The position numbers and the translations under genes were made by a program. From IMG/VR virus record IMGVR_UViG_2778261675_000005: a stretch of 34,479 nucleotides of DNA. The stretch is one strand, 5' to 3'. Positions within the stretch are counted from its first letter, which is position 1, and the number at the start of each line of letters is the position of its first letter. Below, piece by piece: positions 2,503-26,418 of the stretch. The notes below the pieces were generated by a model. The model worked only from the letters and a program-made list of their open reading frames with translations. It had not been told where the DNA came from and searched no databases. Source of the DNA: a virus. Lineage: Duplodnaviria > Heunggongvirae > Uroviricota > Caudoviricetes.

Positions 2503-2727
2503 ATGCATACAGTTTCTGAAAATCAGTGCGGTAAATACGCATTACTGCTGCAACAGGCCAGAACCGAAGCACAGGCCGACGCTGCGACGCGCTTTTCTTC
2601 TCATCTTGACGCCATGATTCGCCACATCACAAAGGCGGAGTTATCCCGCGTGGAGATAGTCGAGCTGCTCAGTCAGGAGTCGGAAAAATTTCACAATATC
2701 GGATTGTCTCGCGGGGAGGTGCTTTGA
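2503..2727 (+). CDS. hypothetical early protein (P2 orf80 position)
   Basis: 74-aa ORF between B and A, codirectional, stop overlaps next start. Confidence 0.55.
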
Positions 2728-3026
2728 TGTCCTGTTCTCATTCAGTTGTATTACTGAATAACGCCTTAAAAATCGCCGTTATGAAAAATGGCGATTTGTC
2801 TCTTATTCAACTTTGTCTTGATAAAGAAAAACGCGACATAACTGAATCTGTTATCGCGATTTATCAGAATGAATTAAACCTCCTGTCTGATATGGTCAAT
2901 TTACTTGTTAAACGCGCTGTATTCCACAAGCAAATTTCCTCCGTGGATGAACTGACAAAATTAACGACAGAACTTGCCAGTTATTGCGCTGATGTATCCA
3001 GGAAACTTAACGATAAAAGGAGCTGA
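2724..3026 (+). CDS. hypothetical early protein (P2 orf81 position)
   Basis: 100-aa ORF, ATGA overlap with upstream ORF. Confidence 0.55.
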
Positions 3027-3028
3027 TA

Positions 3029-3253
3029 ATGCCGGACAACATAGATTTTATTCAGGAACAACAGGCTGAATTACTGGAGCGCCAGATTAACGCGGCAAGG
3101 GTAAAACATTGCGGTGTTTCTGCGCTGGTTTGCGAAGAGTGTGACGCGCCAATACCTGCTGCCCGTCGTGCAGCTTATCCGTCAGCCACGCGTTGTGTTT
3201 CCTGCCAGTCAGTCTTTGAAGCAAAAAACAAGCATTACCGGAGAATGGCATGA
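3029..3253 (+). CDS. TraR/DksA-family C4 zinc-finger protein (P2 orf82 position)
   Basis: 74 aa; CxxC...CxxC (CEECDAPI...RCVSCQ) typical of the phage TraR/DksA-like zinc finger. Confidence 0.7.
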   Translation: MPDNIDFIQEQQAELLERQINAARVKHCGVSALVCEECDAPIPAARRAAYPSATRCVSCQSVFEAKNKHYRRMA

Positions 3254-3525
3254 GTATTCGTATTGAAATTGGCGAACGTTATGTCGTTACCAGTGACAGC
3301 TTTCAGTTTATTCTCCACGAGAAAAAGAGAGCGGAAAGCGGTAAAAACGCCGGTCAGGAATGGCTGGCGGTGGTTGGTTATTACCCGAAATTAAGCCAGC
3401 TCGTTTCCGGCCTGATGCATCACGATATTCTGACCGGAAGCGCAAAGTCTTTTGCTGATTTAAACGCGCAGGTTGAGCAACTCAGCAAGCGTTGTTCTGA
3501 GGCTTTTGGCTCATATGGCCGTTAA
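3250..3525 (+). CDS. hypothetical early protein (P2 orf83 position)
   Basis: 91-aa ORF, ATGA overlap upstream; 3' end overlaps the probable A start. Confidence 0.55.
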   Translation: MSIRIEIGERYVVTSDSFQFILHEKKRAESGKNAGQEWLAVVGYYPKLSQLVSGLMHHDILTGSAKSFADLNAQVEQLSKRCSEAFGSYGR

Positions 3526-5800
3526 AGCCTCCGGGCGTTTTGTCCCTCCGTCAGCATTTGCCGCAGGCACCGGTAAGGCGTTTACCGGTGCTTATGCATG
3601 GAACGCGCCACGCGAGGCTGTCGGGCGCGAAAGACCTCTTACACGTGACGAGATGCGTCAGGTGCAAGGTGTTTTATCCACGATTAACCGCCTGCCTTAC
3701 TTTTTGCGCTCGCTGTTTACTTCACGCTATGACTACATACGGCGCAATAAAAGCCCGGTGCACGGGTTTTATTTCCTCACATCCACTTTTCAGCGTCGTT
3801 TATGGCCGCGCATTGAGCGTGTGAATCAGCGCCATGAAATGAACACCGACGCGTCGTTGCTGTTTCTGGCAGAGCGTGACCACTATGCGCGCCTGCCTGG
3901 AATGAATGACAAGGAGCTGAAAAAGTTTGCCGCCCGTATTTCATCGCAGCTTTTCATGATGTATGAGGAACTCAGCGATGCCTGGGTGGATGCGCATGGC
4001 GAAAAAGAATCGCTGTTTACGGATGAGGCGCAGGCTCACCTCTATGGTCATGTTGCTGGCGCTGCACGTGCTTTCAATATTTCCCCTCTCTACTGGAAAA
4101 AATACCGTAAAGGGCAGATGACCACGAGGCAGGCATATTCTGCCATTGCCCGTCTGTTTAACGATGAGTGGTGGACTCATCAGCTTAAAGGCCAGCGTAT
4201 GCGCTGGCATGAAGCGTTACTGATAGCTGTCGGGGAGGTCAATAAAGACCGTTCTCCTTATGCCAGTAAACACGCCATTCGTGATGTGCGTGCGCGCCGC
4301 CAGGCAAATCTGGAATTTCTTAAATCGTGTGACCTTGAAAACAGGGAAACCGGCGAGCGCATCGACCTTATCAGTAAGGTGATGGGCAGTATTTCTAATC
4401 CTGAAATTCGCCGGATGGAGCTGATGAACACCATTGCCGGTATTGAGCGTTACGCCGCCGCAGAGGGTGATGTGGGGATGTTTATCACGCTGACCGCGCC
4501 GTCAAAGTATCACCCGACTCGTCAGGTCAGAAAAGGCGAAAGTAAAACTGTTCAGCTTAATCACGGCTGGAACGATGAGGCATTTAATCCAAAGGATGCG
4601 CAGCGTTATCTCTGCCGCATCTGGAGCCTGATGCGCACGGCATTCAAGGATAATGATTTACAGGTCTACGGTTTGCGTGTCGTCGAGCCACACCACGACG
4701 GAACGCCGCACTGGCATATGATGCTTTTTTGTAATCCACGCCAGCGTAACCAGATTATCGAAATCATGCGTCGCTATGCGCTCAAAGAGGATGGTGACGA
4801 AAGAGGAGCCGCGCGAAACCGTTTTCAGGCAAAGCACCTTAACCGGGGCGGTGCTGCGGGATATATCGCGAAATACATTTCAAAAAATATCGACGGCTAT
4901 GCACTGGATGGTCAGCTCGATAACGATACCGGTAAGCCGCTTAAAGATACTGCCGCGGCTGTTACCGCATGGGCGTCAACGTGGCGCATCCCGCAATTTA
5001 AAACGGTTGGACTGCCGACAATGGGGGCTTACCGTGAACTACGCAAATTGCCTCGCGGCGTCAGTATTGCTGATGAGTTTGACGAACGCGTCGAGGCTGC
5101 TCGCGCTGCCGCAGACAGTGGTGATTTTGCGTTGTATATCAGCGCGCAGGGTGGGGCAAATGTCCCGCGCGATTGTCAGACTGTCAGGGTTGCCCGTAGC
5201 CCGTCGAGTGACGTTAACGAGTACGAGGAAGAAGTCGAGAGAGTGGTCGGTATTTACGCGCCGCATCTCGGCGCGCGTCATATTCATATCACCAGAACGA
5301 CGGACTGGCGCATTGTGCCGAAAGTTCCGGTCGTTGAGCCTTTGACTTTAAAAAGCGGCATCGCCGCGCCTCGGAGTCCTGTCAATAACTGTGGAAAGCT
5401 CACCGGTGGTGATACTTCGTTACCGGCTCCCACACCTTCTGAACACGCCGCAGCAGTGCTTAATCTGGTTGATGACGGTGTTATCGAATGGAATGACACG
5501 GAGGTCGTGAGGGCGCTCAGGGGGGCATTAAAACACGACCTGAGAACACCAAATCGTCAGCAAAGAAACGGAAGCCCGTTAAAACCACATGAAATTGCAC
5601 CATCGGCCAGACTGGCCCGGTCGGAAAGAATGCAAATTACCCGTATCCGCGTTGACCTTGCTCAGAACGGTATCAGGCCGCAGCGATGGGAGCTTGAGGC
5701 GCTGGCGCGTGGAGCGACCGTAAATTATGACGGTAAAAAATTCATGTATCCGGTCGCTGATGAGTGGCCGGGATTCTCAAAAGTAATGGAGTGGACATGA
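3515..5800 (+). CDS. A: replication initiation endonuclease A (rolling-circle initiator)
   Basis: Large ORF in the P2 gpA position; I place the start at the ATG at 3515 (MAVKASGRF...) rather than the track's upstream ATG at 3473, which would overlap most of the previous ORF; conserved HxH-like block (PHWHMMLF) and catalytic-tyrosine region (GYIAKYISKN) typical of rolling-circle initiators. Confidence 0.85.
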   Translation: MAVKASGRFVPPSAFAAGTGKAFTGAYAWNAPREAVGRERPLTRDEMRQVQGVLSTINRLPYFLRSLFTSRYDYIRRNKSPVHGFYFLTSTFQRRLWPRIERVNQRHEMNTDASLLFLAERDHYARLPGMNDKELKKFAARISSQLFMMYEELSDAWVDAHGEKESLFTDEAQAHLYGHVAGAARAFNISPLYWKKYRKGQMTTRQAYSAIARLFNDEWWTHQLKGQRMRWHEALLIAVGEVNKDRSPYASKHAIRDVRARRQANLEFLKSCDLENRETGERIDLISKVMGSISNPEIRRMELMNTIAGIERYAAAEGDVGMFITLTAPSKYHPTRQVRKGESKTVQLNHGWNDEAFNPKDAQRYLCRIWSLMRTAFKDNDLQVYGLRVVEPHHDGTPHWHMMLFCNPRQRNQIIEIMRRYALKEDGDERGAARNRFQAKHLNRGGAAGYIAKYISKNIDGYALDGQLDNDTGKPLKDTAAAVTAWASTWRIPQFKTVGLPTMGAYRELRKLPRGVSIADEFDERVEAARAAADSGDFALYISAQGGANVPRDCQTVRVARSPSSDVNEYEEEVERVVGIYAPHLGARHIHITRTTDWRIVPKVPVVEPLTLKSGIAAPRSPVNNCGKLTGGDTSLPAPTPSEHAAAVLNLVDDGVIEWNDTEVVRALRGALKHDLRTPNRQQRNGSPLKPHEIAPSARLARSERMQITRIRVDLAQNGIRPQRWELEALARGATVNYDGKKFMYPVADEWPGFSKVMEWT

Positions 5801-6252
5801 TGGCAAAAATTCACGAGGTAAAGCTGCACGCAAAATATTTTGACCTTGTGCTAGAAGGAAAGAAACGCGCAGAGTTTCGGAAAAATGACCGTAATTATGA
5901 GCGCGGGGACACGTTGATTTTGCATGAATGGGGGCAGGGGGTGTATACGGGGCGAAAGGTTGAAGCCCGGATAACAGATGTTACTGACCTGTCAGACTGG
6001 CTGGAAGATTATGTCTTGCTAAGTATTGAGCTGCTTAATACAGGCGCATATGAGATTGTGAACTGGAAAGAACTTAGTGAGCGTGGTCTGGTATTCAGAA
6101 TTAATCATGAAATTATGCATCAGCTCGGCCTTGCTGTCATGTATGAACCAGAGACGGGGATGTCTGGCGGGGCAATGGTTGCCACGGATGGAGCATGGAA
6201 CTATTCGGACGAACAGATTGAGTGTGCAAAGCAAAACGGGTGGCTTGGATAA
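5797..6252 (+). CDS. DUF3850/ASCH-like domain protein
   Basis: ATG at 5797 overlaps A stop (ATGA); N-terminal ~60 aa (KIHEVKLHAKYFDLVLEGKKRAEFRKNDRNYERGDTLILHEW) matches the DUF3850 fold pattern as I recall it. Confidence 0.6.
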   Translation: MMAKIHEVKLHAKYFDLVLEGKKRAEFRKNDRNYERGDTLILHEWGQGVYTGRKVEARITDVTDLSDWLEDYVLLSIELLNTGAYEIVNWKELSERGLVFRINHEIMHQLGLAVMYEPETGMSGGAMVATDGAWNYSDEQIECAKQNGWLG

Positions 6253-6458
6253 TGCACAGAATACCAGGCGAGATACCGCAACATAACACTAAAAATATCA
6301 AGCTGATGGCTATTGTTCACCGTCTACAGCAGATTATGGTCAACGAAAATCTGACGCCTGACGAGCTGGTCGGGTGTGCCGAAATAGTCCGGGATAATTA
6401 CGGGCGGCTTAATTATATCCGTCAGTCCAGAGTTGCTCCACCGTCACGCAGACTATAG
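6252..6458 (+). CDS. small hypothetical protein
   Basis: 68-aa ORF starting at an ATG overlapping the upstream stop (TAATG); no recognisable domain. Confidence 0.35.
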   Translation: MHRIPGEIPQHNTKNIKLMAIVHRLQQIMVNENLTPDELVGCAEIVRDNYGRLNYIRQSRVAPPSRRL

Positions 6459-6658
6459 AAAACGCCGTCAGTCTTGAAACTTGTTTTCAGGGCTGGCGGG
6501 GTTGAACAACGAGCATCGCGAGGCGTTAGTGGTTTTCAGTATGTGTGTTATATGTGATAGGTTGCTTCCTAACGTATTTCATGTTTCTATGGAAAAAGAC
6601 TAAAAAACATGGTAAAGAAGCAAAAAACGCATAGAATGTTGTTAAATTTATTTAGATT

Positions 6659-7786
6659 ATGGTGTATGAAATGCCACTGACTGTCTTAGAACCATTCAAA
6701 ACACAGATGATTTCCCCAGATGAATTAATCTTGGATGCTAAAAACCCAAGACTTTATAACGGGAAAAGTTTTAATGACAATGCCGACCCGCACGAACTGG
6801 TTAAGGCTCTCTCTGATACAGCTGATTTGGAGGAGTTGATTAAATCCATATCAGAGAATGGATATATGTCAATTGAACCTTTAATTGTCATGAAAAAAGG
6901 TGCCAAATATGTTGTTTTAGAGGGAAATCGTCGTTTAGCAGCGATCAAATTACTTACTGAGCCGGGTTTGGCACAAAAGTGTCGTGTTGTTGTTCCTAAA
7001 AACTTGGACGCTCGTGTTATAGATAGTTTGAAAGAAGTGGCTGTATATCTAGTAAATGATGAGTCAGAGGCTCGTTCATTTATTGGATTTAAGCATGTAA
7101 ATGGTCCACATAAGTGGGATTCTTTTGCTAAAGCGCAATTTGCATATAAATGGTTTGTAAGTGAAAGGGCAAATGGGCTTACAATAGACGATATAACAAA
7201 AAAACTCGGTGATAGTAATAATACTGTGCGTTCTATTGTTAGTGCTATGTTTGTACTTGAACAAGCAAAAAATCAGGAGGTATATGATATTCACGCTGAT
7301 CGCATGTCTCCAAAATTTTCATTTTCACACTTATATACTGCATTAAATAGGTCTGAATATAAAGACTTCTTGGGGCTCGAGAGAGATTGGAATGTTACTC
7401 TTAAAGATAACCCTGTCCCATCGCAGAATATTGATAAACTTAAAGATGTTCTTACTGGTCTTTATGGTTATAAAAAAGATAAAAGAGCTTCTTTAATTTC
7501 TTCACAGAATCCGGATTTAAAATATTTTGGCGAGGTTTTGGCTAATGAGGCCTCATACGAAGCCTTTAAGTCTGGGGTTGAAAGTCTGTCTGAATTATAT
7601 AAACAGGCCGGAGATCCACTTCAACACATCAAGGATGCTTTTCTGGAGATAAACAAGCAGCTTGATACTATATCTTCTGTTCTTGATAGAACTGATTCGT
7701 TAGATGACACAACGAAGAACTACATCGAACAATTTAAGAAAAAAGTATTGAAGGTTCAATTTCAATTGCAGAGTATTGAGGAATAA
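6659..7786 (+). CDS. ParB/Srx N-terminal-domain protein (candidate defense component)
   Basis: 375 aa, AT-rich; N-terminal 100 aa follow the ParB N-domain pattern (ILDAKNPRL ... LEELIKSISENGYMSIEPLIV ... YVVLEGNRRLAAIKLL, i.e. the GxxRxxA arginine box); C-terminal ~270 aa unassigned with a coiled-coil-like tail; alternative start at 6671. Confidence 0.7.
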   Translation: MVYEMPLTVLEPFKTQMISPDELILDAKNPRLYNGKSFNDNADPHELVKALSDTADLEELIKSISENGYMSIEPLIVMKKGAKYVVLEGNRRLAAIKLLTEPGLAQKCRVVVPKNLDARVIDSLKEVAVYLVNDESEARSFIGFKHVNGPHKWDSFAKAQFAYKWFVSERANGLTIDDITKKLGDSNNTVRSIVSAMFVLEQAKNQEVYDIHADRMSPKFSFSHLYTALNRSEYKDFLGLERDWNVTLKDNPVPSQNIDKLKDVLTGLYGYKKDKRASLISSQNPDLKYFGEVLANEASYEAFKSGVESLSELYKQAGDPLQHIKDAFLEINKQLDTISSVLDRTDSLDDTTKNYIEQFKKKVLKVQFQLQSIEE

Positions 7787-7789
7787 TAA

Positions 7790-8809
7790 ATGCAGTTGTT
7801 ACCTTATCCGGAGAGTCATCATATTCAAGTTAAATTAGATTGGCTTGAATTATCATGTTTATCGAATATTTACTTTACTGTGCGTATTTCTGAGTTAAGA
7901 AATATTCTGGAGAATTTAGATTCGTTTACATCTTCTGATATAGGTGAGGAAGATGCTGAAGTAGAGAATGAAATACAACGATTACTGGAACAATATCAGC
8001 AAAGAAAAGATATTTTGGGTGAAAGTTATCCATTTGTTTTTAATGAAGAAACACTTTGTCTTGAGTTAATGGAAGGTACATTGGAACAACTGACAGTTGA
8101 CCAACATATCTATTTATACTGCTTGTATTTTTCTCATATGTCAGCATCACGATTATTTAGTGGTTTGGAAAGTCCTACAAACCAGCAACGGGATTTATTA
8201 CAGATTGCTGCAACTATTGCTTTGGCTGGTTATGTTCAAGGCCATAGTATTTCATTCGGTTGGCCAAGACCAGATAGCTCAAGATTTTATGATGCGTTAA
8301 CTAGGGCTATTGATTTAATAGGAGAGGGCAGAGTAAAATCTCTGGCTGATGTAAATCGCTATTTACAGTCTAGGCCTCATAAAGATGCTGGTATTGATGT
8401 TATTGCATGGAAGGATAATAATCCTCGCGATATGTTTCCTGGTAATAAGCTTATTTATTTTGCACAAGTTGCTAGCGGAAATGACTGGCGCTCTAAAGCA
8501 GTAAAAGAAGACATTGCTGTTATACAAAATCACTGGTTGTCGCAAAGAATATATAGAATAATTGACGCGATTGTTATTCCATTTGATTTCGAAAGTGATG
8601 ATGAATCTATAAAAAAAGATCATATCTCTTTGATAGCCGAGGAGTTTGGAGCAGTGTTGCATAGGCTACGGTTGCCAACTTGTTTTAAGAGGGGCTTAGA
8701 GCTTTTAGTTTCTAACCCTGAGTTGCTGATAGAAAGGGGAAATGAAATAAATAATATTTCACAATATGTAATATCAACAACCGCAACGTTACAACAAGAA
8801 GCGGCCTAA
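7790..8809 (+). CDS. hypothetical protein, possible Mrr/PD-(D/E)xK-like nuclease fold (candidate defense component)
   Basis: 339 aa, AT-rich, GAGGA RBS, start 4 nt after the upstream stop (operon); segment HKDAGIDVIAWKD...KLIYFAQVASG is reminiscent of the Mrr-type restriction-endonuclease core, but the assignment is tentative. Confidence 0.55.
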   Translation: MQLLPYPESHHIQVKLDWLELSCLSNIYFTVRISELRNILENLDSFTSSDIGEEDAEVENEIQRLLEQYQQRKDILGESYPFVFNEETLCLELMEGTLEQLTVDQHIYLYCLYFSHMSASRLFSGLESPTNQQRDLLQIAATIALAGYVQGHSISFGWPRPDSSRFYDALTRAIDLIGEGRVKSLADVNRYLQSRPHKDAGIDVIAWKDNNPRDMFPGNKLIYFAQVASGNDWRSKAVKEDIAVIQNHWLSQRIYRIIDAIVIPFDFESDDESIKKDHISLIAEEFGAVLHRLRLPTCFKRGLELLVSNPELLIERGNEINNISQYVISTTATLQQEAA

Positions 8810-8818
8810 TATTAGGCC
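8803..8818. terminator. perfect 16-bp palindrome GGCCTAATATTAGGCC, probable bidirectional terminator
   Basis: Palindrome read directly; contains the stop codons of both convergent genes; T-run follows on the + strand. Confidence 0.5.
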
Positions 8819-9819
8819 GTTTTAATTGCTTTTTTTTCAATCGGAATTTTACTTTCAGATTCCAATATGTCTACAGTAAATAGTGACTCTGGCATTCTTA
8901 ATCGAGAATCAGCGATCATGAGCTCTTTTCCAACTTTAGCCTGGTTCATCACATAGCTTATCTCTACCGCTCTTGTGCCATGTTTTGAATATAACTCATG
9001 CACTAATGGATGGTCATCATAAGAAATTAGCCAGCGGTTCGCATAACCGGCTATATATTCCTTAAGCTCTCGATGCTGTATGTCATCGAAACAAAAGTTT
9101 TTAGAATAAATGTTTCTGCCCTCTTTAACATAGGGAGGGTCTAGATAAACAAAGTCATTTTCGTAATTGTCTTTGTTATCAAATCGTTTTAAAAAATCAA
9201 TACAATGTTCATTATAAACAAATATAGATTCACGCATGCTCGCTATTTTTTCGAGCTTTTTAATAAGGGTGCTTACAGTGTATCTACAATCAATTTTATA
9301 TTTTCCAGATTGGTCTAAACCACCAATTGGCCCTGCGCTTAGTACTCCAGATCTATTTGTCCTATTTAAATAAAAAACACTGAATCCGTACTCGAGTTTA
9401 GTGTACTTAGTAGGATCAGTAATACTTGACTGATAAATTCTCTTTTGTTTATGCCATTCATCGATACATGGTATATTCTGATATACCATATCTAACAGAT
9501 TGTCGGTGTTGTTAATTAATTGATCCCAAAAACAAAATAAAGCATAGTTCTTGTCATTTAAGTGGATCTCTTTGACATATCCACCCAATAGCAGTGAAAG
9601 CGATGCACCAGCGCCGCCGCAAAATGGTTCAATAAACCGTGCGCCATTTAACTTATTATGCATGAGGAAAATAGCGAGAAATGAAGCAAGCTTGTCCTTG
9701 CCACCTGGATAGCGGAATGGTGAGCTGGCTCTAGGGATGTCGTGAACCCCAAACAACTTGCGTACTGATTTTTTGCTAAGTTGTTTTATTGCTTCATGTT
9801 CAAGGATTCTCTGATCCAT
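8812..9819 (-). CDS. Dam-like (D12-class) N6-adenine DNA methyltransferase
   Basis: 335 aa; SAM-binding motifs FRYPGGK and EPFCGGAG plus catalytic DPPY; AT-rich; convergent with the upstream operon. Confidence 0.85.
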   Translation of the reverse strand: MDQRILEHEAIKQLSKKSVRKLFGVHDIPRASSPFRYPGGKDKLASFLAIFLMHNKLNGARFIEPFCGGAGASLSLLLGGYVKEIHLNDKNYALFCFWDQLINNTDNLLDMVYQNIPCIDEWHKQKRIYQSSITDPTKYTKLEYGFSVFYLNRTNRSGVLSAGPIGGLDQSGKYKIDCRYTVSTLIKKLEKIASMRESIFVYNEHCIDFLKRFDNKDNYENDFVYLDPPYVKEGRNIYSKNFCFDDIQHRELKEYIAGYANRWLISYDDHPLVHELYSKHGTRAVEISYVMNQAKVGKELMIADSRLRMPESLFTVDILESESKIPIEKKAIKTA

Positions 9820-10017
9820 GTGCCACCGTTACTATTATGAAAAATATTTCTATTATCGCATGCGTCATTGCTTCCTGCAATCAGGGTAGCGCATGTATCT
9901 ATAGCGTGCGTGGATTTGCATTTATGTTCTTTGGTCTCTAACTCTTTTGTATGGTAATCCCCAAGGGGGTTTGATTACTTAATTCAACCGCATTAAAACC
10001 GGCTCATGAAGCGGGCG

Positions 10018-10036
10018 GGCGAGGCGGGGAAAGCAC
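10018..10036. other. putative cos cohesive-end site
   Basis: GC-rich 19-mer GGCGAGGCGGGGAAAGCAC in the intergenic region just beyond Q, matching my recollection of the P2 cohesive end; not verified. Confidence 0.5.
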
Positions 10037-10184
10037 TGCGCGCTGGCGGTGGTGCTGATTTTATTTTTTCAGCGTCTGAGCGCGTCGTGATGGCGTTTAG
10101 TCGGCCTGCCGGGGCGTTGGTGTGTCTGCGGGGTGTTTTGTACAGTGGCGAACGTGTGAGGGCGTGATGACGGGGTGTAAAAAA

Positions 10185-10205: not shown

Positions 10206-11240
10206 TCAGCCGTTGTCAGTGTCCAGTGAGTAGTTTTTAAATCGGATGACCTCCTGACCGAGCCAGCCGTTTATCTCGCGGATCCTGTCCTGTAACGGGA
10301 TAAGCTCATTGCGGACAAAGACCTTTGCTACTTTCTCAATATCACCCAGCGACCCGACGTTCTCCGGCTTGCCGCCCATCAACTGAAAGGGGATGCGGTG
10401 CGCGTCCAGCAGGTCAGCGGCGCTGGCTTTTTTGATATTAAAAAAATCGTCCTTCGTTGCCACTTCACTGAGCGGGATAATTTTAATGCCGTCAGCTTTC
10501 CCCTGCGGGGCATAGAGAAACAGGTTTTTAAAGTTGTTGCGGCCTTTCGACTTCACCATGTTTTCGCGAAGCATTTCGATATCGTTGCGATCCTGCACGG
10601 CATCAGTGACGTACATGATATATCCGGCATGAGCGCCGTTTTCGTAATACTTGCGGCGGAACAGCGTGGCCGACTCATTCAGCCAGGCAGAGTTAAGGGC
10701 GCTGAGATATTCCGGCAGACCGTACAGCTCCTGATTAATATCCGGCTCCAGCAGGTGAAACACGGAGCCGGGCGCGAAAGGTGTCGGCTCGTTGAAGGAC
10801 GGCACCCACCAGTAAACATCCTCCTCCACGCCACGGCGGGTATATTTTGCCGGTGAGGTTTCCAGTCTGATGACCTTACCGGTGGTGCTGTAACGCTTTT
10901 CCAGAAACGCATTGCCGAACACCAGAAAATCCAGCACAAAGCGGCTGAAATCCTGCTGGGAAAGCCACGGATGCGGGATAAATGTCGAGGCCAGAATATT
11001 GCGTTTGACGTAAATCGGTGAGCTGTGATGCACGGCAGCACGCAGACTTTTTGCCAGCCCGGTAAAGCTGACCGGCGGCTCATACCATCTGCCGTTACTG
11101 ATGCATTCGACGTAATCCAGAATGTCACGGCGGTCGAGTACCGGCACCGGCTCGCCAAAGGTGAATGCCTCCATTTTCGGGGCGCTGGCGGTCATTGTTT
11201 TTGCCGCAGGTTGCGGTGTTTTCCCTTTTTTCTTGCTCAT
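10206..11240 (-). CDS. Q: portal protein
   Basis: 344 aa, same length and position as P2 gpQ; start overlaps P stop (ATGA). Confidence 0.9.
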   Translation of the reverse strand: MSKKKGKTPQPAAKTMTASAPKMEAFTFGEPVPVLDRRDILDYVECISNGRWYEPPVSFTGLAKSLRAAVHHSSPIYVKRNILASTFIPHPWLSQQDFSRFVLDFLVFGNAFLEKRYSTTGKVIRLETSPAKYTRRGVEEDVYWWVPSFNEPTPFAPGSVFHLLEPDINQELYGLPEYLSALNSAWLNESATLFRRKYYENGAHAGYIMYVTDAVQDRNDIEMLRENMVKSKGRNNFKNLFLYAPQGKADGIKIIPLSEVATKDDFFNIKKASAADLLDAHRIPFQLMGGKPENVGSLGDIEKVAKVFVRNELIPLQDRIREINGWLGQEVIRFKNYSLDTDNG

Positions 11241-13012
11241 CAGTAAAACTCCAGAATGGTGGATGTCAGCGGGGTGCTGATACCGGCGGTGAGTGGCTCA
11301 TTTAACAGGGCGTGCATGGTCGCCCAGGCGAGGTCGGCGTGGCTGGCTTCCTCGCTGCGGCTGGCCTCATAGGTGGCGCTGCGTCCGCTGCTGGTCATGG
11401 TCTTGCGGATAGCCATAAACGAGCTGGTGATGTCGGTGGCGCTGACGTCATATTCCAGACAGCCACGGCGGATAACGTCTTTGGCCTTGAGCACCATTGC
11501 GGTTTTCATTTCCGGCGTGTAGCGGATATCGCGCGCGGCGGGGTAGAACGAGCGCACGAGCTGGAACACGCCGACACCGAGGCCGGTGGCATCAATACCG
11601 ATGTATTCGACGTTGTATTTTTCGGTGAGTTTGCGGATGGATTCCGCCTGGGTGGCAAAGTCCATGCCTTTCCACTGGTGACGCTCAAGTATTCTGAATT
11701 TGCCACCGGCCACCACCGGCGGTGCCAGCACCACGCATCCGGCACTGTCGCCACGGTGTGACGGGTCGTAACCAATCCATACCGGGCGGGAGCCGAACGG
11801 ATTCGCGGCAAACGGCGCATAGTCTTCCCATTCTTCCAGCGTGTCGACCATGCAGCGTTGCAGCTCCTCGAACGGGAACACCGACGCCTTGTCGTCAACA
11901 AATTCACACATGAACAGGTTTTTAAAATCGTCGGCGCTGTTTTCACGTTTGAGCTGCTCAATGTCGAACAGTGTGCAGCCACCTTTCAGGGCATCTTCAA
12001 TGGTGACAATCTGCCGCCACTGGCCGTCCGCACAGAGAAGCCCTCCGGCAAGGGCGTTATGACTGACGTCGATTTCCACGCGTTCGGCGGCGCTGGCGCG
12101 TCCCCGGTTGAACAGTTCACCTGACCAGAACGGGTAGGCGTCGTGCGCCAGCGTGGACGGGGTGGAGAAATAGGTCGAGCGCAGGTGACTCTGTGAGGCC
12201 ATACCTGATGCCACCTTACGCAGTACCTGAAAATTCGGGATCCAGAAAATCTCATCGACGTACAGGTCGCCGTTATGGCTCTGCGCGGTGTTGGAGTTGG
12301 TGCCGAGAAAAATCAGTTTTGCGCCGTTATTGCCCAGGACAATCGGGTCACCGGTCAGGTCAACGTCCACCAGACGGGCAAAGGCGATGATGTATTCGCG
12401 GAACACATACGCCTGCGTTTTACTGGCCGACAGAAAAATCTGGTTATGACCGGTTTTCAGGGCGCGCAGCAGTGCCTCGCGGGAAAAATAAAACGTCGCG
12501 CCAATCTGGCGGGATTTCAGGATATCGCGGATGCGGTGCTCAAGCCCGGCGCGATACCAGTGCAACTGATAGTCGAAAGACTGCTCAAAGAAAATCTGCT
12601 CCAGCTTTTCGATGGCTTCGTCACTGAAAAAATTCTTTTTCGGTTTGCGACGCCCGCCTTTGTTGCGGTTAGCGACGTTCGGATTAAGGTCTGCCTCGTT
12701 GCCGGTCTGGCTGTAGCGGTTTACCCGTGCCAGTCGTTCAATCTGGCGTCCCAGCAGGTCAATTTCCTTGAAGTCACCGCCGGTTTTCTGCGGTTTGATG
12801 ATGAGCTGGGTCAGCCGCGCTTCCAGGCTCATTTCGACACGGCTGATGGGGGCAACGCTGTCCCAGCCGTCGCGCTGTTTCCAGCTCTGCACCGTCGGGC
12901 GTTTCATCTGCAACATGGCGGCAATCTGCGGCACGGAAAACCCCTGCCAGTACAGCAGCGCCGCCTGACGACGCGGGTCGTGTAAAAGAGTGGTGTCTGT
13001 GGTGATGGTCAT
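11240..13012 (-). CDS. P: terminase large (ATPase) subunit
   Basis: 590 aa from the ATG at 13012, preceded by GAGG at suitable spacing (the track's 600-aa start has no RBS); P2 gpP length and position. Confidence 0.9.
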   Translation of the reverse strand: MTITTDTTLLHDPRRQAALLYWQGFSVPQIAAMLQMKRPTVQSWKQRDGWDSVAPISRVEMSLEARLTQLIIKPQKTGGDFKEIDLLGRQIERLARVNRYSQTGNEADLNPNVANRNKGGRRKPKKNFFSDEAIEKLEQIFFEQSFDYQLHWYRAGLEHRIRDILKSRQIGATFYFSREALLRALKTGHNQIFLSASKTQAYVFREYIIAFARLVDVDLTGDPIVLGNNGAKLIFLGTNSNTAQSHNGDLYVDEIFWIPNFQVLRKVASGMASQSHLRSTYFSTPSTLAHDAYPFWSGELFNRGRASAAERVEIDVSHNALAGGLLCADGQWRQIVTIEDALKGGCTLFDIEQLKRENSADDFKNLFMCEFVDDKASVFPFEELQRCMVDTLEEWEDYAPFAANPFGSRPVWIGYDPSHRGDSAGCVVLAPPVVAGGKFRILERHQWKGMDFATQAESIRKLTEKYNVEYIGIDATGLGVGVFQLVRSFYPAARDIRYTPEMKTAMVLKAKDVIRRGCLEYDVSATDITSSFMAIRKTMTSSGRSATYEASRSEEASHADLAWATMHALLNEPLTAGISTPLTSTILEFY

Positions 13013-13042
13013 GAATACCTCGCCGTGATGAATACACGGCAA

Positions 13043-19457: not shown

Positions 19458-20243
19458 TTATGAGTGATTTTTATTTGATGCTTTGTATTCTAAAACCTTC
19501 TTATTGGCGTAAAAGAATTTTGTATATGACAGGAATATAACCAGACCTAAAGTGAAATAGACGAGGGATAGTATTAATAATGCTTTTTTGTGACTGTTAT
19601 TGTCTTTAATCTCCTGGCTTAACCATTCGGAGTCCTCCTCGTTTAGCTGTAAGAGCTTATTGCAGGCGATCTCAGGAAGTGTGTCTTTTATAAATACGTT
19701 TTGCAGTCTCTTGCAATCGGCAAGGCTATAAGTTTTATTAAATTCAACTGCTTTATTTTTGAAGGATAAAAGAACTTTGTCACTATAAACATAGTACATC
19801 ATGTTTTTATATGGTATGCCTATGGCATCCCTTACTATAACGGATTGTTCGTTGTGTATGTAACATGCGAGGAGAATGTAAAAAATACTGGCCAGAATTA
19901 CAATTATTGTTTTAATTATGTGTGGTGGTTTTGTTATGTCACCCCAGATGCGAGTAAGGAAAAAATACGATGTTTTTAGTTTTCCATCAATCAGTCCCTG
20001 CTGTATCATTCTCACATTTTCAATGCCTGATACATTGATTCCGTTAATTATTTTAAATAGTTGAATGTCGCGCCACTCGCGGTCAAGTCTTTTTAATTTT
20101 TTGTCTGAATATCCAAAATTGAAATAATGTGCAATAAGCCTCATAAGGTTACTTTTACCAAAGCTAAAAAATGCTAATACTGCAAAGCTACAAAGGAAAA
20201 AAACGATTAGCCCCCACACATTAGTCACATTATAGCTGACCAT
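19458..20243 (-). CDS. multi-pass membrane protein, cargo gene at the P2 orf30 position
   Basis: 261 aa, very AT-rich, opposite strand to the flanking late genes; predicted transmembrane helices near residues 9-27, 112-131 and 220-240; GGAGAG RBS before the ATG. Confidence 0.7.
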   Translation of the reverse strand: MVSYNVTNVWGLIVFFLCSFAVLAFFSFGKSNLMRLIAHYFNFGYSDKKLKRLDREWRDIQLFKIINGINVSGIENVRMIQQGLIDGKLKTSYFFLTRIWGDITKPPHIIKTIIVILASIFYILLACYIHNEQSVIVRDAIGIPYKNMMYYVYSDKVLLSFKNKAVEFNKTYSLADCKRLQNVFIKDTLPEIACNKLLQLNEEDSEWLSQEIKDNNSHKKALLILSLVYFTLGLVIFLSYTKFFYANKKVLEYKASNKNHS

Positions 20244-25518: not shown

Positions 25519-26418
25519 ATGAGTGGTATTCGTATAACTCAGGCTATTGATAACAATCAGATTTTAGTAAATGTAAATACTTTTAATTATAGTGTTAATC
25601 CCTATCCACTCAAATGTCCTGACCCAAATTGCTCTGCTCATTTGGTGTATGTCAAAAGCCATATTCGTCGGAGTTTTAATAAAACCTTGCATATCCCCGC
25701 CTTCTTTAGACTGGAAAAAAATTTCACGCATGACAAATTATGCCAGTATGGAACTTCAGGATTGAATACAATTTATGCAAGTGATTCCAGTCATGATATC
25801 AGCCGTGCGCTTGCCACAGGTAATAATATATTCCGTATACATATACTCGATGAAGATGATATCTCTAAATTAAGCAGAAAAGCTGCAGCTATGCAGGCAA
25901 ATCCACCTTCTGATACTACAGACCGCGTTTATGTCAAGAGAGGTCGGAAAGCCCCTTATGTGAAGAACATGGATAGCTTACGGGAGATCTATGAATATGG
26001 AAAAGCTCACCCCAACAAGAGAAACAGCATAAAAATTGTTACTGGAACAAGTACTGTAACGTGGTCTGATTTTTTCTATGAAACAACGCAGTTAGAACGA
26101 TTGTCAACTTACCTCCAGAAAGTAAAAATAGCTCAGGTTGCTGTAATTATGAAAGTGCATGTGGCGAGAATCCCTATGGCGAAATTTAATTATCGACACT
26201 TCATTGAAGGTTCGCCAATGAGGATAAAAGGGGGCTTTAATATATATCCTACGATTCAATTAGGAAATGTTACTCCAAAATTATTTCCGTTGAGTAGCAT
26301 TGTCATGGTACTCGGTAAATTTACTATTCCAACAAATAGAAAAATGATAATGGATCCAATATTTGAGCGTGAAGTCAGAACCATAGTTTCTAGTGAAGAG
26401 CAAGTGCTAATTCTTTGA
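25519..26418 (+). CDS. hypothetical 299-aa protein, cargo gene at the P2 Z/fun position
   Basis: AT-rich ORF between G and FI with its own GGAGG RBS and ~215 bp AT-rich upstream region; no motif I can assign. Confidence 0.65.
   Translation: MSGIRITQAIDNNQILVNVNTFNYSVNPYPLKCPDPNCSAHLVYVKSHIRRSFNKTLHIPAFFRLEKNFTHDKLCQYGTSGLNTIYASDSSHDISRALATGNNIFRIHILDEDDISKLSRKAAAMQANPPSDTTDRVYVKRGRKAPYVKNMDSLREIYEYGKAHPNKRNSIKIVTGTSTVTWSDFFYETTQLERLSTYLQKVKIAQVAVIMKVHVARIPMAKFNYRHFIEGSPMRIKGGFNIYPTIQLGNVTPKLFPLSSIVMVLGKFTIPTNRKMIMDPIFEREVRTIVSSEEQVLIL

Follow-up and report, generated by a model that had tools for sequence, protein, structure and literature searches.

An adenine methyltransferase of a P2-like Escherichia coli prophage as the probable protective partner of a three-gene, restriction-modification-like defence cassette

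The 34,479-nt window analyzed here, that is, the whole stretch of DNA, is a P2-like E. coli prophage. On its minus strand, at positions 8812–9819, it encodes a D12-class (alpha-type) N6-adenine DNA methyltransferase which is probably the protective partner in a three-gene, restriction-modification (R-M)-like defence cassette located in the P2 hotspot; we put the probability of this reading at about 0.7. The evidence that carries it is a conserved linkage of a methyltransferase to a putative DNA-targeting module across lineages, found in 41 of 44 loci and involving three methylase families. Two possibilities had been left side by side in the initial annotation, namely that the enzyme protects DNA from the neighbouring nuclease-like genes, or that it is independent cargo with an anti-restriction or epigenetic role. 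The co-occurrence data support the former, with a methylase gene or its remnant directly following the gene pair in those 41 loci, and disfavour the latter.

The ORF at 8812–9819 starts with ATG and codes for 335 aa. Its translation contains PFRYPGGK (residues 34–41), EPFCGGAG (63–70) and DPPY (227–230), so that the three motifs from which a D12-class N6-adenine methyltransferase had initially been recognized are indeed present, and AdoMet-binding motif I (FxGxG) lies before catalytic motif IV (DPPY), which is the motif order of the alpha class. The Pfam profile PF02086 (MethyltransfD12) matched with an E-value of 2.1e-22 and 80.5 bits (cut-off 22) over profile positions 1–248 of 253. Among the PADLOC models, the best match was PD-Lambda-5_B (E 4.6e-94; residues 31–315 on profile positions 4–281 of 291), while MTase_II, the REBASE-derived set of Type II methyltransferase models, gave 1e-77 and the models for orphan methyltransferases matched more weakly (E 1.7e-19). 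The gene product also matched an adenine methyltransferase of known structure (PDB 7m6b, E 2.9e-20), and homologues reach up to 88% identity. In a 100% identical RefSeq record, an E. coli chromosome, the same coordinates are annotated as 'DNA adenine methylase' (WP_000372780.1). The PF02086 and PD-Lambda-5_B E-values, together with these close homologues, exclude a chance match. The enzyme is not an orthologue of Dam, the GATC methylase, because it scored 70.4 bits against TIGR00571, for which the curated cut-off is 114.85; the earlier description as 'Dam-like' therefore holds for fold and class, but not for orthology. Judged by its sequence, the product is a genuine alpha-class m6A methyltransferase that is Dam-like in fold and class only, and it looks intact, with PF02086 aligned over nearly its full profile and both motif I and DPPY kept.

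As noted at the outset, the gene lies on the opposite strand to a ParB-domain operon and converges on it. This operon consists of two plus-strand genes, one for a ParB/Srx-fold protein of 375 aa (6659–7786; the RefSeq start at 6671 gives 371 aa) and one for a protein of 339 aa (7790–8809). The stop codons of the methyltransferase and 339-aa genes are separated by 2 bp, and both are covered by an inverted repeat with an 11-bp stem and a 4-nt loop, which a terminator scan detected on both strands at 8798–8823. This hairpin looks like a two-strand terminator and probably keeps the two units of transcription apart.

The 375-aa protein is laid out as a ParB N-domain, a helical middle part and a long helical C-terminus. 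The N-domain has the fold expected for ParB, including the motifs of Box I (NPR) and Box II (GxRR). Two points weigh against the role proposed below: the Box III position, judged by eye, reads IGFKH versus ENLQR in the CTPases, and the score against PF02195 was under the Pfam cut-off. The protein resembles KorB and pNOB8 ParB-N. The PADLOC profile PDC-M38A (715 positions) aligns with most of it and not with the 339-aa protein; a literature search for PDC-M38 found no mention. Identity as a partition ParB (ParABS) was tried and rejected, as TIGR00180 gave 27.7 bits against a cut-off of 58.45 and there is no ParA gene: neither the annotated loci examined nor the annotated E. coli record has a ParA-like gene beside the ParB/339-aa pair. 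We propose that the protein serves the restriction module as a sensor or licensing subunit that binds NTP. Many non-canonical ParB-fold proteins bind NTP (PMC12704722).

The 339-aa protein has a winged-helix-like N-terminal part and a C-terminal core resembling restriction endonucleases (PD-(D/E)xK-like) with the non-canonical motif D...QxA...K, and it is proposed as the nuclease subunit. Comparison at the sequence level detected no relation to any known restriction endonuclease family. Searches of Pfam, NCBIfam and PADLOC gave no match, even when E-values as high as 10 were admitted and the domains were searched separately, and in PHROGs it falls only in a family of unknown function. A Foldseek search of its structural model against the PDB returned no significant match, and a tblastn search against 50,697 deposited phage genomes returned none at all. 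The family, which has no model in Pfam, NCBIfam or PADLOC, comprises about 2500 clusters (at 50% identity) at E ≤1e-3, of which 1341 remain at E ≤1e-10. In the best 150 of the 2500 clusters the proteins are stand-alone and about 330–360 aa long, save for shorter fragments, and no Rosetta-stone fusions between ParB and 339-aa proteins were found among them.

The initial annotation had suggested comparing the co-occurrence of the three genes in other genomes, and this comparison was carried out by searching species-representative genomes, one for each species, with a 339-aa family profile. ORFs were called in the resulting 46 loci and scored with profiles for the three proteins, with Pfam identity confirmed on examples; two loci were cut by contig ends, leaving 44 informative ones. 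The loci come from Proteobacteria, Acidobacteria, Actinobacteria, Spirochaetes, Cyanobacteria, Gemmatimonadetes, Verrucomicrobia and other phyla. In each locus that extends upstream of the 339-aa gene, that gene is preceded by a ParB-like gene, and a methylase gene or its remnant accompanies the pair in 41 of the 44. In 26 loci this is a D12 methylase gene or remnant directly downstream, either co-directional or convergent (in one of the loci, L057, one gene lies between the 339-aa gene and the D12 methylase), and in 15 it is a co-directional gene or remnant of the N6_N4 type (PF01555). The gene junctions are tight, typically with a 4-bp overlap, and many of the methylase genes overlap the 339-aa gene or converge with it, their ends overlapping. 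The same gene pattern was seen in six further loci from metagenomes and a Vibrio prophage. The trees of the ParB and 339-aa proteins agree broadly, and the type of methylase is clade-specific, implying several methylase replacements, and the pairwise identities of the ParB protein, the 339-aa protein and the methylase correlate with r = 0.88–0.92. That the two-gene module is kept while the methylase family (D12, N6_N4 or C5) interchanges is the signature of an R-M system.

These data also bear on the possibility that the enzyme is an orphan cargo methylase, shielding phage DNA or acting as an epigenetic regulator, and that the ParB operon is an unrelated, partition- or KorB-like neighbour. Solitary D12 methylases borne by phages are common, the enzyme does match the PADLOC orphan models (albeit more weakly) and it forms a transcription unit of its own on the opposite strand; the likeness of the ParB protein to KorB and pNOB8 ParB-N, and the few loci that keep the ParB pair without a methylase, point in the same direction. 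However, the adjacency in 41 of 44 loci, where three methylase families have been swapped across distant phyla and in non-prophage contexts too, is not what this reading predicts, nor are the co-varying identities of the three proteins, the missing ParA gene and a partner that looks like a restriction endonuclease in fold. Moreover, the longest contigs with methylase orthologues (66–88% identity) coincide in size with those of the ParB and 339-aa clusters. Since the conserved two-gene module recruits some methylase whatever its family, we regard an orphan cargo methylase as highly improbable.

Some loci depart from the pattern. Three of the 44 (L015, L018 and L019, all from Methylococcaceae MAGs) have no adjacent methylase and intact-looking ParB and 339-aa genes, and the methylase is degraded or fragmentary in three of the 41 methylase-bearing loci (L039, L046 and L055). 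In L046, a Rhodobacter MAG, the D12 gene is decayed and the restriction genes beside it are apparently intact. L015, L018, L019 and L046 are surprising, because a toxic restriction enzyme should die out without its methylase unless it is covered from elsewhere; they could be explained by inactivating point mutations, by errors in the assembly of the MAGs or by a methylase encoded at another place in the genome. In L031, L050 and L056, the restriction genes are decayed and the methylase is intact, and in L039 and L055 both have decayed together. Such decay, like the presence of a compact three-gene unit on a mobile element, would be consistent with an addiction or stabilisation module, in which the prophage is kept by post-segregational killing and defence is a by-product. 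Many family members are chromosomal with no mobile element visible, however, and L046 and L019 contradict strict addiction, so that we consider this explanation very unlikely, although it is compatible with defence and sequence alone cannot separate the two.

The genomic position of the cassette fits a defence role. The prophage backbone in the window includes the integrase (1–1011), the gpA replication endonuclease (3473–5800) and the portal and terminase genes (10206–13042), with the tail-fibre genes beyond. The three cassette genes lie in a cargo island of about 35% GC at approximately 6530–9970, between gpA/orf91 and cos/portal, and the GC fraction along the window accordingly changes from 0.53 to 0.35 at the island and then to 0.55 (backbone about 55%). 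A plus-strand sequence at 10018–10036, GGCGAGGCGGGGAAAGCAC, which occurs once in the window as an exact match and lies about 200 bp 5' of the start codon of the methylase gene, is presumably the 19-nt cohesive end (cos) of P2; it is part of the context and outside the cassette. Other E. coli P2 prophages matched about 7% of the region 6400–10100, in two pieces that correspond to the island flanks only. Of 5426 complete E. coli genomes, 20 contained the full island, 12 at ≥99.8% identity and eight at 82.7%, and all 20 carry the same three genes. The hotspot between gpA and portal adjoins cos; in P2 it is occupied by old and tin, and in relatives of P2 by many defence systems (PMC9122126; PMC9519451). 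Hence, the defence reading is favoured, as the cassette occupies a hotspot validated for defence and the nearest named system, PD-lambda-5, is itself a validated defence system.

Directly upstream of the cassette, on the plus strand at 5764–6252, is a gene for a P2 orf91-like protein with DUF3850/ASCH and DUF7415 domains. Fusions of ParB-CTPase and DUF3850 are enriched in phages (PMC12704722), and the location of a DUF3850 gene beside a ParB-fold gene is for this reason maybe not accidental. However, this gene belongs to the conserved P2 backbone and is found in L-413C and vB_EcoM-12474III too.

A sister cassette with a different methylase occupies the same P2 hotspot in phage vB_EcoM-12474III (L061, 3980–7016), where a ParB homologue and a homologue of the 339-aa protein are accompanied by a convergent C5 methylase (PF00145). 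This phage cassette was detected only by searching with the ParB protein and by comparing profiles. In hhalign, its ParB protein aligned with the present one over the full length (probability 99.9, E 3.6e-33), and its middle protein gave a probability of 96.9 and an E-value of 1.3e-10 against the 339-aa protein, the active-site motif D-G-x-D...GQ...W..K being conserved. The C5 cassette (vB_EcoM-12474II-V, Wphi gp98 region) is like the present one in hotspot, three-gene architecture and convergent methylase, but it differs in having a cytosine methylase, a ParB protein of only about 28% identity and a middle protein that is seen only by profile comparison. The cassette thus occurs in the P2 defence hotspot of E. 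coli in two versions: of the 5426 complete genomes, 20 carry the D12 form and 140 carry the C5 form, which is full-length in 36. The C5 cassette is also present in Wphi, L-413C and HQ103, lies in inverted orientation in the hotspot, and is carried by the E. coli O145:H28 outbreak strains RM13514 and RM12581; the best PADLOC model for its methylase is Druantia DruM (E 2.8e-111). In their hotspot catalogue (2022, Table S5A), Rousset et al. list the present cassette once and have a recurrent entry 'DNA_methylase + hypothetical + ParBc', which appears to be the C5 sister cassette; in the available part of the main text of that paper, neither entry is discussed. A literature search for a characterised ParB–restriction endonuclease–methylase system and for the three RefSeq accessions gave only one catalogue line, in the same table (Rousset et al., Table S5A).

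Next to these close relatives, the nearest named system is PD-lambda-5 ('ParB/HEPN, methyltransferase'), a validated defence system that its authors describe as RM-like and as a compacted RM+Abi system (Vassallo et al. 2022, PMC9519451). Below 66% identity, the nearest relatives of the present methylase (45–52%) are 321-aa enzymes of lambdoid prophages, each of which matches PD-Lambda-5_B and adjoins a 519-aa protein matching PD-Lambda-5_A. The present ParB protein matches PD-Lambda-5_A with an E-value of 7e-23, but over residues 16–164 only, its N-terminal third, and is 28% identical to the 519-aa homologue; the 339-aa protein was found to have nothing in common with the 519-aa A protein. The two systems are alike in that both are prophage-borne and combine a partner containing a homologous ParB N-domain with a D12 methylase; the methylases belong to one clade, the present enzyme being 45–48% identical to those encoded beside PD-Lambda-5_A genes in lambdoid prophages. 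PD-lambda-5, however, has two genes, and its A component is a single ParB/HEPN polypeptide of about 450–520 aa, whereas the present cassette has three genes, a 375-aa ParB protein that lacks HEPN and differs in its helical C-terminus, and an extra restriction-endonuclease-like protein of 339 aa for which there is no PADLOC model. The genes are also convergent here and co-directional in the lambdoid PD-lambda-5-like examples. Assignment to a full PD-lambda-5 was rejected, given three genes instead of two and no full-length match to PD-Lambda-5_A. In the lambdoid prophages of E. coli and Salmonella (L008–L013), the PD-lambda-5-like pairs are located between the Q antiterminator and the lysis genes, and those of E. 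coli (L008–L010) have a second methylase gene of the N6_N4 type nearby, which is split into two ORFs in L010.

Two of the loci combine the gene pair with a complete PD-Lambda-5_A. In L057 the order is ParB, 339-aa protein, PD-Lambda-5_A (2542–3909, full-length, E 4e-135) and D12 methylase, and in L028 it is ParB, 339-aa protein and N6_N4 methylase, followed by a convergent full-length PD-Lambda-5_A (7112–9121, E 1e-209). Since each of these loci has one methylase, they suggest a modular family in which a single methyl mark is shared by a DNase-like arm, an RNase arm or both, and such four-gene loci may represent the uncompacted 'RM+Abi' ancestor of PD-lambda-5. The ParB N-domain is common to all versions, and we therefore propose it as the reader of, or actor on, unmodified DNA. 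PD-lambda-5 defends without a homologue of the 339-aa protein, so the logic between methylase and partner may differ from that of classical restriction.

In line with this, the cassette could be a PD-lambda-5-type 'RM+Abi' system, in which the ParB N-domain reads methylation and triggers an effector (the 339-aa protein, or a fused HEPN RNase in PD-lambda-5), with abortive infection as a possible outcome. The ParB N-domain in common with PD-Lambda-5_A, PD-Lambda-5_B as the best model for the methylase, the sharing of one methylase in L057 and L028, and the description of PD-lambda-5 by its own authors all argue for this. A search of the ParB and 339-aa proteins for a HEPN domain or RNase signature found none, however, and the effector resembles DNA endonucleases; it also weighs against this reading that PD-Lambda-5_A matches no more than the first third of the ParB protein and that the 339-aa protein has no PADLOC model. 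This explanation overlaps with the R-M-like defence cassette that we prefer, differing mainly in the outcome and in the sensing subunit, and in its own right we consider it unlikely.

The preferred R-M-like reading invites comparison with other known systems. Type II R-M systems with convergent R and M genes are similar in their separate, adjacent and convergent genes, in the match to MTase_II, in the exchange of the methylase family while the R module is kept, and in a size that fits a phage hotspot. They differ in that the restriction module here is always two genes, one of which encodes a ParB/Srx NTPase fold, and a possible NTP requirement would place the cassette outside Type II. In GmrSD, a ParB/Srx-fold nucleotide-binding domain is paired with a DNA endonuclease in anti-phage restriction. 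The same combination is described for the GmrSD, BrxU and SspE-type enzymes as a group (DUF262; PMC12839542). These are single polypeptides with an HNH/DUF1524 nuclease that depend on modification (Type IV) and lack a cognate methylase, whereas in the present cassette the corresponding functions are split between two polypeptides, the core is PD-(D/E)xK-like and a methylase is obligatorily linked. Taken together, the cassette appears to be an unnamed relative of PD-lambda-5 and Type II R-M, and the literature searched holds no functional study of it.

In the mechanism that we propose, the methylase would use AdoMet to mark adenines of host and prophage DNA at some motif, and the convergent two-gene operon would act as the restriction module. 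The ParB/Srx-fold subunit would probably bind NTP and engage unmodified DNA, presumably in a complex with its winged-helix and restriction-endonuclease-like 339-aa partner, which would probably cut it. Incoming DNA without the mark would be attacked and methylated self DNA would be spared, while the hairpin at 8798–8823 would separate the converging transcription and thereby limit interference. As a tentative generalisation, in which we have clearly less confidence, the ParB/339-aa pair might define a large restriction class, spread over many bacterial phyla, in which a nucleotide-gated sensor or clamp of the ParB-CTPase fold licenses a divergent PD-(D/E)xK nuclease. A HEPN RNase arm would take that place in PD-lambda-5, one methyl mark would gate either arm, and m6A, m4C/m6A and m5C methylases would be interchangeable.

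The methylase alone is an ordinary enzyme, and the interest lies in the system that it marks, which consists of a ParB-fold protein and a widespread family without any model. With the current PADLOC models, the cassette would be called a partial PD-lambda-5 at best, or missed. If the proposed reading is correct, it would represent a new R-M architecture and give the ParB-CTPase fold a concrete role in immunity, and PD-lambda-5 would become explicable as half of a larger modular system.

Two further low-GC patches were observed in the window. The first (about 37% GC) contains a plus-strand ORF of 299 aa at 25519–26418, directly 3' of the tail-fibre assembly gene, for which Pfam and PADLOC searches gave no match. 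Its location corresponds to the Z/fun position of P2, which is a second defence hotspot (PMC9519451), and the ORF is a candidate for a second cargo or defence gene. The second patch (about 39% GC) contains an ORF of 261 aa at 19458–20243 on the minus strand, opposite to the tail and baseplate genes amid which it lies; this ORF likewise gave no match in Pfam or PADLOC searches. Its position presumably resembles that of P2 orf30.
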